Positions 15,001 through 21,000 of a stretch of 64,000 nucleotides of DNA are shown piece after piece. A program made the position numbers. The stretch's first letter is position 1, and each line of letters opens with the position of its first letter. Source of the DNA: Candidatus Sulfomarinibacteraceae bacterium (GTDB taxonomy: Bacteria; Acidobacteriota; Thermoanaerobaculia; Thermoanaerobaculales; Sulfomarinibacteraceae); NCBI GenBank assembly GCA_963796455.1, contig CAWCLO010000004.1, forward strand, positions 192,001-256,000. The letters are read 5' to 3'.

Positions 15001-18000
15001 CGATTCAAAGCCGACCTGCCGCTCGATTCGGAGAGCAGACCATTCAACTCGTCCTCTCGAGCGGGATAACCCCTGAACTATATAGGATATTGCACTCTCG
15101 GGGAGCGGTGTCGTCGTTAAAAAAGGGTCAAAATTCTTTTTGCGAGAGAGGGGCCGGTGGGTTGTCGTGTATCCGATCCGCCGGATTCGGCAGATCCGGG
15201 TCGCAAATGAAATGCCCCGGCTCGAGGCCGGGGCAGGATATCGGTTCCGATGAATCGATGGGTCAGTTCATGCTGATCGTCAATGGTGACAGACCGATCA
15301 CGGTGTCTTCGATGGCGCTGTCGAAGTTGCTCTGCGTGCCGATTCGTTGATCGGAGAAGAGGTCGGTCAAGATCTGCCGCGTCTCCGTTTTTGATGCTCT
15401 GAATCGAATCATCTCGTCGTCGACATTGATGTGGGCGTCGTCGACGATTCGTTGGGCAGCTTCGGAGAAATCGGCGTCCGGCGCCGTCACGCTGCCAAGT
15501 TTCTCGCGTAGATAGGACTCCACCTCGGTTTCGAGCGCATCCTCAAACCGTTCACCCAGACGTTCCATCTCCTCGTGGAAGGGCTCCATTTCTTTGTGGA
15601 TCTTCTCCATCTGCTCGTGGAAAGGCTCCATGTCGATGTGGATCTGTTCCATCTGCGCGTGGATGGGCTCCATATCGATGTGGACCTCGGCCATCTCTTC
15701 GTGGAGGTGCTCCATCTCCTGGTGGATTTGCTCCATCTGTTCGTGGAAGGGCTCAAGATTGACGTGGAGGTCTTCGAGTTGACTCATGTGGATCGACATC
15801 TGTTCGTGGATCTGCTCCTGGACCTCCGCAAGGGTTCCGTCTTCGATGTGGATCTGGATGCCTTCGAGCTGTTGTTGCAGTCCGTCCATCTTGACCACAA
15901 AGGGCTCCATGTCGATTTCGATGGCCTCGAGGCGTTCGAGGTATGGCTCCATCTTTGCTTCGATTTCTGCAATTTTTTCGTCATCGATGGTGATCTCGAT
16001 ATCCGAAAGCATCTCGATCTGGGGCTCCATATCGATCTGGATGTCTTCGATCGTCGCCAGGAACGGTTCCATCTTTGCTTCGATGCTAGCCATCTCGGTG
16101 GCGATTTGTTTGAGCTCTGATCCCGCCTCTCTAGGTTGCGGATCACTCGGGTAGACGGCTGCCAATGCCGGGACCATGGCAGCCATGGCGATGATTGCGG
16201 GAATCAGAACCGCGGTACCGACGCGGCGGTGATTTTTGTGGTCGAGAATACTCATGATGCGTTCCTCCATGTGGGTTCTGCGAGCCATCCCCAGTGCCGG
16301 GATGGCGGGAGCGGGACACGGCAAAGCGTTACGGGCGATGCCGAGCAGGTGGCAGGCATAACTCGAAGCGCGGGTTCCGAGGGCGATGACCTCCTCGTCA
16401 CACGCGAGTTCTTGTTCGAGATCGAGTCGTCGGGTGGCCCACCACGCGAGCGGGTTGAACCAATAGGCGGCTCGGGTGAGCCGGGCAATCGTTCGCATGG
16501 GCCAATCGAATCGGGCGATATGAACCGTTTCGTGGAGCAGCACGGCCTGGCGGCGCCCCCAGACCCATCGCTCGGCACCCAGGGGCAGCACGATGGCCGG
16601 TCTGAAAACGCCGACGGTGGCGGGGATCTCGACTTCGGTGCTGGTCAGGAGCCGGATTTTTCGACGACACCCGGTCTGCTCGCGCGCTGCCGCCAGCATG
16701 CCGAGCCAATGGGCATCATCCACAACACTGGAAGCTCGGAGGCACGATGTCATCCGCCACAGACCGATGGCGAGCCGAAGCAACATGAGCCCGAATCCGA
16801 CAGCCCAGACGGCAAGGATGGTCGCCTTCCAGTTGATCGGCGGGGTGTTTCGGGCCGGTGGAGCGGTGACGGAGAACTCCGGGATGTGAACGACTCCCGA
16901 GTGCCCGCCGACTATATCCTCGCTGATCTGGAGATCGATGCGTGCTGTGGTCTGAACCGCCTGGTCGGCGGTAGCCCACTGCGCGAGGCCTTCCGGCACC
17001 GGTAGCGACAGTTCCGGAAGGAAGGGCGCCACGGCCGGAATCACCAGACATCCCGCCAAGGCGGTTCCCCACACCGCGGCCCGAAGCCGGGCCGACCGGT
17101 TGCGAAGGGCGAAGGCGAACCCGCCGGCCGCTATCAACAACAACAGGGCCTTGAGCGACCCCAGTACCAGGGTCAGGATCGTGGTCATTGGTTTTCCTCC
17201 CGCCGCACCGCGTCGATCCTTCGTGCCAGGCGTCGCAGGGCCTCTTCATCCAATTGATCACTCTCGAGGTCGAGGAGGGCCGCCATGGCGCCCTCGGGGG
17301 AGCCGCCGAAAAAGGTCCGGACCAGGCGGCGGAGCGCATTTTCACTGGCTTCCTCGTGCGGAACTGTCGGTAGAAACACGTACCGGGGGCCGTCCTGTTC
17401 GTGGCGGATGTGGCCCTTTTCTTCGAGAATCCGGAGCATTGCCCGGACCGCCGAGTACGATGGGGGATCCGGCATCCGCTCGCGGACCTCGGCCGAGGTC
17501 ACCCGGCCCATTTCGTACACGATCCCCATGATCTGTCGTTCGCGCCGGCTCAGATCTGCGGTGTCTGCTGTCATCGGTCCTCCACGTTCGGTCTGATGTC
17601 GATGGCCATCGACTGGTGCTAATAAATTAGCATCATGCTAAGAATCTAGCACCTGATATTGATTTGTCAAGACCCGTTCCAGTTTTCTTTACGGAATTTG
17701 GTGGTTCGGGGTTCGGATCCGCGGGGGATTCCGAAGTGCAGCCGGGACGGCTGCACCACCATGGCGCTCAGCTGTTTATCCTGGTGGTGCAGGCGTCCCG
17801 CCTGCCCATTTTCGCTGTGGCGATGCAATACTGAGTAAAGAATGACTCCCGAAAATAGACGCGGACCGCTTTTCCCCGAACGGTTTGTCGACCCGAAGTC
17901 GCGACCCTTCACATCGACGAAATGGAGGGGAAACCTGCCGCACATCTACAAAGAAGGCGGCACATACTTCGTTACATTTTGTCTTTTTGATGCGATGAAC

Positions 18001-21000
18001 CGCGGACGAAAAGGGCCAGAACGCTCCGACGATTGGACCGCCGTCGCAGAGAGCCTCGATACGGACCCAAGTATTGGTGCATGCATTCTGAGACGCCCGA
18101 CGATCGCGGGTTTGGTGGAAGGGGCACTCCTTTATTTTCAGGGTGAACGGTATTTGCTGAGCGCCTGGTGTGTGATGCCGAACCATGTCCATTGCGTGGT
18201 AACACCGGCTTCAGATCACGACCTGTCGAATGTTCTTCACTCATGGAAATCGTATACGGGTCATGCGATCAACAAACGGCTCAACCGGGAAGGCGTGGTG
18301 TGGCAGCAGGAGTCGTTCGATCATTTCGTTCGGAACCCGAGTGCCTTTGAACGCTTTGTCGCTTACACCGAAAACAACCCAGTGACCGCCGGGTTGTGTG
18401 ATCGTCCGGAAGATTGGTTGTTCAGCAGCGCAAGGCATCGGGGAAACCCGGGATGATTTTGTGCAGCCGGGACGGCTGCACCACCATGGCGCTCAGCTGT
18501 TTATCCTGGTGGTGCAGGCGTCCCGCCTGCACAGGCTTACTCGTCGAAAAGAAAGGTCTTCGTGTCGACCACCTTGGCGTAGGTCCGGTCGAGGGTCGCC
18601 AGGGTGGAGGCGTGGACATCGGCCGCCGGCACGACACGATCGCCGTAGCTGAGGTCTCTGGTCGCACAGGCATCGCCCACCACAATGCATTCGAAACCGT
18701 TGTCGGCGGCGGCTCTGGTGGCCGCCTCGAGGCACATGTGGGTCTGCATCCCGACGATCACCAGCCTATCGATACCGAGGTTTTTGAGGTGGGCCAGAAC
18801 CTCGGTGCCTTTGAAACAGCTGACTTCCGTCTTGGTGAAGACCTTTTCACCATCAAGCGGCGCCACGCTCGCGTGGATCGCGCCCCCCGGTTCAAATTCG
18901 TGGCGGACATGGATCACGGGCCTGCCGTCAGCTCGAAACGCCGCCAGAACACGGCCCGCATTTCGGGCCGCAGCCTCGGGTTCGACCAGCGGCACCTTGC
19001 CTCCCGGGAAATAGAAATCCTGAATGTCGATGATCAACAGAGCCGTTGTGGGCTCCGAAGCCCACAACGGTGCCGCCAGCGCCAGCAGAAGCACCGCGAT
19101 CACAAGTGATTTCATGACGCCCCCTATTCGGGTTTCGGCAGGCCTTCCATCACCGCCAGCGAGCGCTCCATGACTTCCGGCGGCAGCGGGTAGTTCTTGA
19201 GGTCACCCGCAAAATAGGCCGCATATCCGGCGAGGTCCATCAGACCGTGGCCGGAGTAGTTGAAGAGGATGGTCTTTTCCTTGCCCTCCTCCTTCGCCTT
19301 TTTGGCCTCGTTGATCGCGGCCGCAATGGCGTGGCTGGTTTCAGGTGCCGGGATGATCCCCTCGGTCCGGGCAAAGGTCACCGCCGCTTCATAGCACTCG
19401 AGCTGCGCAACGGCTGTCGGAGCCATGAGCCCGCTCCGGACGCTGGCAGAAACCAGTGGGGCCATCCCGTGGTAACGGAGCCCGCCGGCATGAATGGCCG
19501 GCGGAATGAACTCGTGTCCGAGCGAATACATCGCCAGTAGCGGCGTCATTTTCGCGGTGTCGCCGTGGTCGTATGCGTAGGGCGCCTTGGTGAGCGTCGG
19601 GCAGGCCTCCGGTTCGACCGGGATGATGTCGATCTCCGCCCCATTGATCTTGTCGGCGACAAAGGGGAAAGAGAGACCGGCCAGATTGGAGCCGCCTCCG
19701 GCACATCCGATGACCACATCGGGTTTGTCGATGCCTGCGATCGCGAGCTGTTTCTTTGCCTCGAGACCGATGATGGACTGGTGGAGCATCACGAAGTTGA
19801 GCACACTTCCGAGCGAGTAACGGGTCGTACCGCTGGTGTCCGTCACCGCGGCTTCGATGGCTTCCGAGATCGCGATGCCGAGGCTGCCGGGAGTGTCGGG
19901 CATCTTTTCGAGAATTCCGCGCCCGACCTGAGTCTCCGGCGACGGCGAGGGCACGCAGCGGGCGCCCCAGGTTTCCATCATGGTCTTGCGGAAGGGCTTT
20001 TGGTCAAAGCTGACGCGAACCATCCATACATCGACCTGAATGCCGAGAAGCTGGCCCGCAAAGGCGAGGGCCGAACCCCACTGACCGGCGCCGGTCTCGG
20101 TGGTCAGCCTCTTGATGCCGAACTCCTTGTTGTACCAGGCCTGGGCCACCGCGGTGTTCGGTTTGTGGCTACCGGCCGGAGAAACGCTTTCGTCCTTGTA
20201 GAAGATCTTGGCCGGCGTCCCGAGGTGTTTCTCCAGGGCGTAGGCGCGGCGGAGCGGAGTGGGCCGCCAGCGCGCATAGATCTCGAGGATCTCCTCGGGA
20301 ATATCAATCCAGCGTTCGGTGGAGACCTCCTGCTCGATGAGGTTCATCGGAAAGACCGGAGCCAGCATTTCGGGCCCGATCGGGTTTCCATCTGGACCGA
20401 GGGGTGGTGGCGGCGGTTGCGGAAGGTCGGCGGCCAGGTTGTACCACTGGCGCGGCATTTCTTGGGTTGACAGGGTGATTTTTGGGTCGTTCATTTCGGC
20501 GCCCTCCTTCGAGAATAAAACCCCGCCGCCGCTCCATCGATCGGCGACGAATTGAAGGGCCGATCCTAACATTTCCGCCGTTCACCCGGTACATACCGCC
20601 ACTCGCCGAAATTGCCGTGACAGCCGAAGCGCCAACGACCATGTTGGAGGTGACGGAAAAAGGAGGCAAAAATGACACATCATCACCACCACGGATTGAA
20701 CGGATGCGAATGGTGCGATGGCCGCCATGGATTGTGGGGCGCCTTCGTGCTCGGTCTCGGAATTGTCGTGATCGGTTCGATTCTGATTCTGAATAACTTC
20801 GGCGTCATCGACGGGAGCGCCTATCTGCCGTACTGGCCGGTGCTACTGATCGTGCTCGGTCTCAGCCATCTGGTGCAACCCAGATCGGGAAAAATCGGTT
20901 GGGGGCTGTCATGGATCGCAATCGGTGCGATCATATTGCTCGACAACCTCGGTGTGATCGCTTTCGGAATCTGGGATCTGTGGCCGGTTCTATTGTTGAT

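Follow-up and report, generated by a model that had tools for sequence, protein, structure and literature searches.

The closest described relatives of the system reported here are REPtron and REPIN-RAYT systems (PMC3116915, PMC5581495, PMC6006769, PMC8266576, 10.1101/2021.07.10.451892). As these sources present them, a HuH-Y1 gene is flanked by REP doublets with GT[AG]G feet, the same REP is dispersed through the genome, and the locus is conserved across the genus. Population models of REPINs attribute REP copy number to slow duplication driven by the RAYT, at about 1e-8 per generation compared with 1e-5 for MITEs (10.1101/2021.07.10.451892). The window analysed here is a stretch of 64,000 nucleotides from a Candidatus Sulfomarinibacteraceae bacterium (assembly GCA_963796455.1, contig CAWCLO010000004.1, positions 192,001 to 256,000), viewed against the rest of its genome (G000) and those of its congeners. 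It shares the features just listed; unlike in the described systems, however, most REP copies here have hundreds of bases of flank in common. Because most of them ride in other repeats, copy number is no measure of RAYT activity.

The RAYT locus and its hairpins

The RAYT (TnpA-REP) gene g01816 (17842-18456, plus strand) encodes 204 aa with a HuH motif (NHVH), a WQ motif and a catalytic-tyrosine motif (YTENNP), which, compared by eye and as those classes are outlined in the sources, resemble RAYT subclass 2.4 (Bertels group 4) and not groups 2 or 3. Its product is a REP-associated tyrosine transposase by NF047646 (90.3 bits; cut-off 80) and, as the genome-wide survey's note had proposed, REP doublets flank the gene. 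The left doublet (17736-17807) has its GTGG feet inside, a start-to-start distance of 51 nt and one terminal mismatch in the second REP, and both REPs of the right doublet (18461-18532) are perfect; they lie in direct repeats of 73 nt (17736-17808 and 18461-18533; 99% identity), the first 70 nt being identical, as reported earlier. The paralogue g00789, only 55-58% identical to g01816, is also bracketed by REPs (five perfect, six relaxed); it had been listed without an NCBIfam row but scores 80.6 bits, above the NCBIfam cut-off. H115, H117 and Y175, belonging to NHVH and the YTENNP-type motif, are invariant in six of six aligned proteins, and the catalytic motifs of both RAYTs are intact.

Five of six Y1_Tnp genes had been labelled RAYTs. 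Three genes of about 330 aa do share the NCBIfam label (two were scanned), but no REP cluster of the g01816 family lies near them, and the flanks of the ~330-aa Y1 loci L019-L023 and L025 are without a g01816-type REP. The same REP as at g01816 flanks all eight RAYT loci of relatives (L008-L015). Six genomes (G001, G005, G008, G021, G022 and G024) have an orthologue of g01816 next to the same isochorismatase gene, and in G014 the two are about 4 kb apart; the RAYT stays at one locus, is mostly inherited vertically and is not multicopy. Together, g01816, g00789 and the GTGG-footed REP are an ordinary REP system, or REPtron, and the RAYT annotation is routine.

The survey's count of 157 perfect GTGC-N5-N3-N5'-GCAC matches was reproduced (none in either of two order-4 Markov genomes), as were the five stem variants (GGCCG 70, AGCCG 30, ACGCG 28, AGGCG 24, GGGCG 5). 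That all stems are complementary, however, was built into the regular expression and is not a finding; GTGC-N13-GCAC sites total 232. A 5′ foot, [T/G]GTG in 217 of 229 relaxed matches, marks the REP as GTGG-type. Doublets, taken as two REPs within ~130 nt, make up 99 of 124 REP clusters, all of them inverted, and come in two types: type A, found in a repeat termed family 2, has its feet inside and a spacing of 31 nt (30 clusters), and type B, found in the IVP family, has its feet outside and a spacing of 24 nt (60 clusters). The 21-mers are separated by 10 nt and not by 16. One doublet of the IVP-family type stands free at C3:335267, where the shared left flank is only ~12 nt.

Perfect REPs within family 2 number 55, as previously counted; the recount places 73 in IVP-family elements and 29 elsewhere, instead of 66 and 36. 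Thus 128 of 157 lie inside composites. A doublet that is itself the replicating unit, with unrelated flanks, is not what most clusters represent, as 103 of 124 lie in the two carriers; the remaining 21 have differing flanks, judged by eye. The REP is present in 21 of 24 congeners and in 0 of 16 genomes of another family (control 0). In relatives it is free-standing, with 3 of 60 clusters near GxxExxY-type arms and none of the 60 near IVP-family modules.

Two repeats that carry the doublets

The IVP family belongs to the MITEs: its terminal inverted repeats are of the IS4 family, and its insertions duplicate 9 bp of target. Exact 9-bp duplications flank 9 of 25 REPIN-bearing, 8 of 35 gene-bearing and 2 of 13 empty elements (19 of 73 in total), compared with 1.4-2.2% in a swapped-flank control (1.5% for the REPIN-bearing elements); none occurred at 7, 8, 10 or 11 bp. 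The MITE favours heptamer arrays as insertion sites, and many of the duplications lie in such arrays, for which the control allows only partly. REPIN-bearing elements with both ends measure 303-566 bp, where 0.5-0.9 kb had been given for the composites, and the REPIN sits at a relative position of 0.38 (0.31-0.49, 25 copies). Within the window, a gene-less element of this type lies at 5329-5712 (plus strand; one recognisable end, left boundary approximate), with a 24-nt-spaced doublet from 5501 and a single REP just outside it (5727-5747, minus strand). The element at 25762-26543 (unstranded), which holds an IVP four-helix-bundle gene (TIGR02436; match 26105-26386, plus strand), represents the parent form of the REPIN carrier, still with its gene.

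That a REPIN takes the place of the inner hairpin and gene, as the survey's note held, is confirmed: one doublet replaced about 0.4 kb, comprising the upstream hairpin and almost all of the IVP gene, and left the stop-codon end. Both junctions are common to 71 of 76 MITE-type doublets, which points to a single origin for an arrangement that now occupies 74 MITE loci. The second REP is intact at its outer end in only 13 of 75 doublets and damaged in 62. Conservation of the REPIN was considered as proof of RAYT use in the MITE and rejected, the replaced hairpin being equally conserved (REPIN 0.971, hairpin 0.987). The right ends of the MITE are not sorted by cargo (16 changes against 18.4 when shuffled, 49 of 500 shuffles being as low, over 106 poorly resolved columns), and the ends of one REPIN copy are identical to those of one gene copy. 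Many REPIN copies may accordingly have arisen by conversion of elements already in place, events that the 9-bp duplications cannot date.

Family 2, present across the genus, consists of nested inverted arms of the kind that flanks GxxExxY genes (TIGR04256, PF13366), set around a hairpin core. Matching inverted arms accompany 21 of 22 GxxExxY genes (control 3 of 2000), and both intact GxxExxY genes of G000 score above the TIGR04256 cut-off. A PF13366 search of G017, a 740-contig assembly with many nests, gave no match, which does not help the idea that the GxxExxY protein would copy or cut the nest. The copy number reported for family 2 holds, with 33 cores in G000, but its REPIN is not central (median relative position 0.69, range 0.47-0.96, 29 copies) and is missing from five of the 33. 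All fall into one clade (98/92), and its deepest branch is without the REPIN. The ends are ragged, as they are in relatives' nests, outer arms are of the same type in 8 of 27 copies, and the best flanking direct repeat is no longer than in the control (six of 33 copies being without callable ends). The REPIN is unusually conserved here (0.987 compared with 0.933 for the core; 0.997 compared with 0.936 at paired sites), and the RAYT may use it.

Two nests fall in the window, both on the minus strand. One (29374-29970, boundaries approximate) has its REPIN at 29466-29517. The other (31708-33320; REPIN 31991-32042) is interrupted by an IS4-ended IVP element inside its arm (32392-33208, unstranded), flanked by an exact 9-bp duplication of a target that is itself a short tandem repeat. 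Three congeners have only 85-269 bp in the orthologous gap at the second nest, where 1750-1837 bp are found here. Judged by gap size, family 2 is absent from one of six genomes at 29374 and from three of six at 31708, and other genomes have larger, different inserts. Six sites were compared with congeners, which are only about 70-80% identical, and gave no base-precise empty site; reads from four of 24 runs, matched to 17000-36000, yielded short pieces and repeat-to-repeat joints only, with no empty-site or excision junction.

Movement of the carriers

Both carriers occur in congeners without this REP. It is absent from relatives' IS4-ended elements (0 of 20 and 0 of 24), of which 10 of 20 and 11 of 24 have exact 9-bp duplications, and no relative's family-2 core has it within 450 nt (0 of 15 and 0 of 28, overlapping sets). 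G017 has 17 family-2 matches in which 100 or more of the 155 core bases are covered, with four REPs and no close RAYT found; there and in G006, family 2 occurs in multiple copies that lack this REPIN. In other congeners, MITE and nest both hold the REP doublet of a different RAYT, so REP capture recurs. Repeated capture by both carriers is not obviously predicted by neutrality.

The end motif of the MITE also bounds ~1.4-kb elements that encode IS4 transposases (five of five ORFs tested pass NF033592). The autonomous IS4 of G017 matches the MITE at its right end and differs at 2 of 15 bases at its left. In G000 (90.5% complete), NF033590, NF033592 and the cognate protein query returned nothing, and PF01609 returned one unrelated element without MITE ends. 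A close IS4 transposase was found in only one of 25 genomes of the genus, none was found with these queries in G006 and G021, which have 80-89 end matches, and a GTDB pattern scan for the end gave only two short gene-less elements.

We consider it likely that three systems are layered here, an ordinary REPtron, an IS4-ended MITE and a nest of GxxExxY arms, with most REPs (128 of the 157 perfect ones) as passengers. The REPtron would make and spread the roughly 20 free REP clusters. MITE copies would be spread by an IS4 transposase acting in trans and absent from this assembly, and recombination between them would swap their cargo. One family-2 arm acquired a doublet in this lineage, and family 2 itself could, more tentatively, spread by GxxExxY-linked or homology-driven copying. 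The RAYT's own part was probably the original insertion of doublets into hairpin-rich carriers, more than once in the genus. Against this reading stand, first of all, the IS4 transposase not found in G000, and further the shuffling of cargo and ends, the high conservation of the family-2 REPIN, the repeated capture, the free MITE-type doublet, the position of many duplications in heptamer arrays and the lack of a base-precise empty site. Of the survey's reading, the REP-RAYT system stands, as does the location of most REPs in long composites; the REPIN as their functional core is not supported, though the RAYT may help to swap cargo between resident copies.

On the model implied by the survey's note, the RAYT moves every composite of 0.4-0.9 kb in full, as one oversized REPIN. 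The concentration of perfect REPs in composites and the intact catalytic motifs of both RAYTs would fit, as would the ragged ends of family 2 without target duplication, which a HuH reaction with variable cut sites could leave. The MITE, however, keeps its IS4 ends and 9-bp duplications with every cargo, which largely refutes this model for that carrier; family 2 is multicopy and ragged without this REPIN in relatives and lacks it in some local copies, and the REPIN is off-centre in both carriers, so that such movement is very unlikely. Even less probable, in our view, is that the MITEs owe their present copying to the IVP four-helix-bundle protein or to host repair and not to an IS4 transposase, their IS4 ends being relics. 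There are about 70 IVP matches in G000, yet no IS4 transposase was found there or in most MITE-rich congeners; but fresh, exact 9-bp duplications also flank MITEs that have no IVP match, in G008, G024, G021 and others, and the IVP family is not known to have nuclease activity.

A subtler role for the RAYT is homing: other machinery would place the carriers, the RAYT would nick at REPs, and the gene conversion so promoted would spread a REPIN cassette among the copies already present, at the expense of the IVP gene or the plain arm. The shuffling of cargo against MITE ends, the conservation of the family-2 REPIN above its core and the capture of two RAYT-cognate REP families by both carriers speak for it, and E. 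coli TnpA-REP is described as cleaving and recombining single-stranded REPs in vitro (PMC8266576). Against it, conservation of the MITE REPIN does not exceed that of the replaced hairpin and its second REP is mostly damaged, two REPIN-bearing MITE copies that are 97.9% identical end to end lie at different sites with different exact duplications of their own, and mosaicism is also plain where REPs are lacking, in family-2 arms and in heptamer arrays. We regard this assisted homing as unlikely. It is likewise doubtful, if somewhat less so, that the doublets are more broadly non-neutral cargo, with doublets of different resident RAYTs recruited repeatedly and nicking letting the cassette home through MITEs and nests. 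Were this so, DDE or GxxExxY placement followed by a HuH-driven cargo sweep would make a two-enzyme relay that lets a domesticated transposase take control of faster selfish repeats and remove their genes.

Comparison with known systems

About four-fifths of the REPs here descend from two capture events amplified within other repeats, so REP counts and sequence spectra would mislead REPIN models; since most hairpins multiplied as passengers in two larger repeats, counts overstate the transposase's own copying. The genus offers a natural experiment: a single IS4-ended frame is found with four cargoes and a single nest with two different REP doublets, and the question of who copies REPs thus becomes testable by comparing junctions.

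In the open-access literature, judged mostly from titles, we found no description of REPINs amplified inside MITEs or GxxExxY arms and, judged by title, no work on GxxExxY that concerned repeats. Related arrangements are known, and are compared here as far as the sources describe them. Paired hepta/octanucleotide repeat sites of Geobacter metallireducens are also dispersed, inverted pairs of short tandem repeats, sometimes with an IS nearby, but they are read as regulator sites, have other consensus units and are given no GxxExxY link (PMC2700814). Doublets embedded in a larger repeated palindrome recall BIMEs and the REP dimers in longer palindromes of Anabaena (GTAG-15), Halothiobacillus (CGTC-1) and the Neisseria mosaics (PMC3733652); those hosts are short palindromes whose mover is not identified, whereas the elements here are 0.3-1.3 kb long and have their own transposition signature or a cognate gene. 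IS and REP DNA are also nested in the REP-targeting elements IS1397 and IS621 (PMC3184786), but here the nesting is reversed, with the doublet inside an IS-derived element. The BrickBuilt MITE of Porphyromonas gingivalis likewise carries another repeat, a minisatellite, as a hitchhiker (PMC4596501); its ends are of IS5 type and its passenger has no transposase of its own, whereas the passenger here is the substrate of a resident RAYT. Most similar to the MITE are the IS4-family MITEs and mobile insertion cassettes, which lack a transposase and carry passenger DNA between terminal inverted repeats of IS4 type, with target duplication (PMC2266710); unlike in those, the cargo here is exchangeable within one genus, being an IVP gene, a GTGG doublet, a GTAG doublet or a third hairpin family.

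The RAYT gene and its REP doublets

In the genome under study (G000), the window encodes a Y1 transposase of 204 aa (g01816, 17842-18456), which scores above the NCBIfam cut-off for REP-associated tyrosine transposases (RAYTs) and is bracketed by two REP doublets, the first 70 nt of which are identical. The HuH and tyrosine motifs are invariant across six aligned RAYT proteins, and the gene is an ordinary, routine member of its kind. A BlaI-type repressor (PF03965) and a 641-aa, possibly BlaR/M56-like gene with a coding repeat of 21-nt period lie on the minus strand at 15263-17574. 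The genome-wide survey's note implied that RAYT moves long composite repeats with REPINs (inverted REP doublets) at their core. Its regular expression was reproduced, with 157 matches in the 5.02-Mb genome vs none in two Markov controls, and the features it described are real, but the assignment of RAYT as mover of the composites is very probably wrong.

With two mismatches permitted, 229 REPs in 124 clusters were found genome-wide, 217 of them with a [T/G]GTG foot (the short 5′ tetranucleotide). Most doublets follow one of two designs, one with feet inside and 31-nt spacing (30 clusters), the other with feet outside and 24-nt spacing (60 clusters). The 157 REPs are placed in a composite repeat nest (family 2; 55), in the IVP family (73), or elsewhere (29); counted by cluster, the figures are 29, 74 and 21.

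RAYT orthologues with 55-62% identity occur in seven congeners, and a broken copy (43%) in an eighth; the same neighbour gene adjoins the orthologue in six genomes, and all eight orthologue loci are flanked by REPs of the G000 type. This REP is present in 21 of 24 congeners vs none of 16 genomes of another family, related genomes not being independent. In relatives it is free-standing: among 60 clusters (the first listed plus 20 picked by hand), GxxExxY-type arms lay within 400 nt in three and IVP-family modules in none, although diverged modules may be missed because the probes were built from G000 sequence.

The gap between the BlaI and isochorismatase genes, the position of g01816 in G000, is filled in G014 by a third RAYT-like gene, which has a REP family of its own (C8:34500-36500, L371; also at C1:740.7 kb of G000, L004), and contains only a REP array in G003. 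Long tandem REP arrays of 8 and 12 units with a 45-nt period occur in G006 (C4:12199-15439). Three Y1 genes of ~330 aa in G000 (C4:1143.4-1147.4 kb and C8:150.8-151.8 kb), two of them near-identical copies 3 kb apart, have terminal inverted repeats, not REPs, at their borders (TIRYT- or subclass 2.1-like). Such genes share the NCBIfam label of RAYT but lack the G000-type REP, and by eye their motifs match subclass 2.1 of PMC6006769.

An IS4-ended MITE as carrier

The IVP family consists of repeat elements with or without a four-helix-bundle gene (IVP, TIGR02436), or with a REPIN in its place, delimited by an inverted repeat whose end motif has 270 matches in G000. Both ends could be called in 73 elements, a subset of the family. 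Of these, 9 of 25 with a REPIN, 8 of 35 with the gene and 2 of 13 empty ones have an exact 9-bp duplication at their flanks, vs 1.4-2.2% in a swapped-flank control; lengths of 7, 8, 10 and 11 bp gave none. A metagenome scan by the MITE right end yielded 98 stretches, 80 of them retrieved; among these are several elements of ~1.4 kb whose frame encodes 395-423 aa, and all five frames tested are IS4 transposases. Congener G017 has an IS4 of the same sort, its right end matching the MITE. The MITE end is also present in two records labelled Candidatus Sulfomarinibacteraceae. The IVP family in G000 is an IS4-ended MITE. A cognate transposase was not found in searches of the G000 genome, and in the genus survey detectable IS4 is absent from most MITE-rich genomes.

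The REPIN-bearing MITE descends from the gene-bearing one; by eye, what is left of the IVP gene on one side is its stop-codon end, and on the other side the upstream hairpin region persists as its tail. Both junctions are common to 71 of 76 MITE-type doublets, so the arrangement arose once; the second REP is damaged in 62 of 75. Two REPIN copies, 97.9% identical across 433 bp, are flanked by exact duplications that differ from each other, consistent with the unit moving as a whole. By eye, the base of the replaced hairpin's stem (e.g., window ~25.9-26.0 kb) resembles the beginning of the REP apart from a 2-nt gap and might have supplied microhomology for the replacement. The only MITE-type doublet outside a carrier (C3:335267), possibly a donor or an escapee, adjoins a gene-bearing element and has ~12 nt of left flank in common.

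In relatives' same-ended MITEs, the G000-type REP was found in 0 of 20 in one set and 0 of 24 with both ends in a second, which holds four more without a callable second end. IS4-type ends enclose the IVP gene in G006, a GTAG-type REP doublet in G008, G024, G005 and G016 (~210-310 bp; L360-L365, L388, L390, L391), and doublets of a third hairpin family in G021, G020 and G012 (~390 bp; L366, L367, L389, L392-L415). The GTAG REP flanks a different Y1 gene in G005, G008 and G024. G000 is without GTAG REPs, yet has 12 collapsed palindromes of that family, some within its MITEs.

A nest of GxxExxY arms as carrier

Three GxxExxY genes in G000 (one frameshifted) each lie between their own inverted short-repeat arms, and matching inverted arms were found at 21 of 22 full-length GxxExxY genes examined across the genus, vs 3 of 2000 random spans. 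Family 2 (33 cores in G000) is made of these arm types, nested and shuffled around a hairpin core; its ends are ragged, and no target duplication was found at the ends of G000 copies. The REPIN has a median position of 0.69, within the right arm, and is missing from five of the 33 cores, four with one common junction and a fifth that looks like a microhomology deletion. The G000 cores group together as a single clade, and its deepest branch is without REPIN; the REPIN label needs four changes on the core tree, so losses or conversions took place.

In relatives, the nest exists without the G000-type REP, which was found near 0 of 15 and 0 of 28 cores (overlapping sets). G006 has 15 core matches and 109 REPs; at the 12 cores read there, no REP lay nearby. 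In G017, whose assembly is 95% complete and fragmented, there are 17 substantial core matches and 4 REPs, and neither a close RAYT nor a match to the GxxExxY gene was found. The GTAG REP adjoins the core, on the opposite side from G000's REPIN, in 6 of 21 congener loci (two pairs overlap), which shows occurrence and not frequency because some loci were chosen with a nearby GTAG match already known.

Two further repeat groups were seen in G000. Outside the window, ~50 repeats of ~72 bp with attC-like ends, spaced 0.2-1.7 kb apart (C4:847.9-877.2 kb), adjoin an integron-integrase-like frame with one internal stop, below cut-off (C4:878636-878941); the array is probably a large chromosomal integron. 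A clustered ~0.4-0.66-kb family of depth ~20 (C1:1289-1327 kb and C4:419-594 kb) is without REPs.

Origin and spread of the doublets

Most likely, RAYT inserted one doublet, once, into each hairpin-rich carrier, and the carriers would then have multiplied by their own routes. The MITE would have spread by IS4 transposition in trans, with an observed signature and a putative enzyme; family 2 might have spread by GxxExxY-linked or homology-driven copying, and arms and cargo may afterwards have been shuffled by recombination. In a comparison of right ends (63 of 73 elements, 106 columns), MITEs do not group by cargo (16 changes vs 18.4 after shuffling), and many REPIN loci may therefore be resident copies that underwent conversion. 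Together with family-2 REPIN conservation (0.987 vs 0.933 for the core), recurrent capture (two REP families, each in both carriers), the carrier-free doublet and the missing IS4, this keeps RAYT-assisted homing alive, although we consider it unlikely; in the MITE, REPIN conservation (0.971) is no better than that of the replaced hairpin (0.987).

REPtrons (PMC3116915, PMC5581495, PMC6006769, PMC8266576, 10.1101/2021.07.10.451892), BIMEs and IS4 MITEs (IS4 family: PMC2266710), REP dimers within short palindromes (PMC3733652) and a minisatellite within a MITE (PMC4596501) are already published; IS elements targeting REPs (PMC3184786) and Geobacter repeat sites (PMC2700814) offer further comparison. 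The literature searches found no paper about REPIN amplification within MITEs or about GxxExxY arms; the supplements of PMC2266710, PMC6006769, PMC3733652 and PMC2700814 may be relevant to subgroup assignment and may already include this REP or these arms. What is new is that RAYT substrates have repeatedly hitchhiked, in an IS4-ended MITE as well as in a nest of GxxExxY arms.
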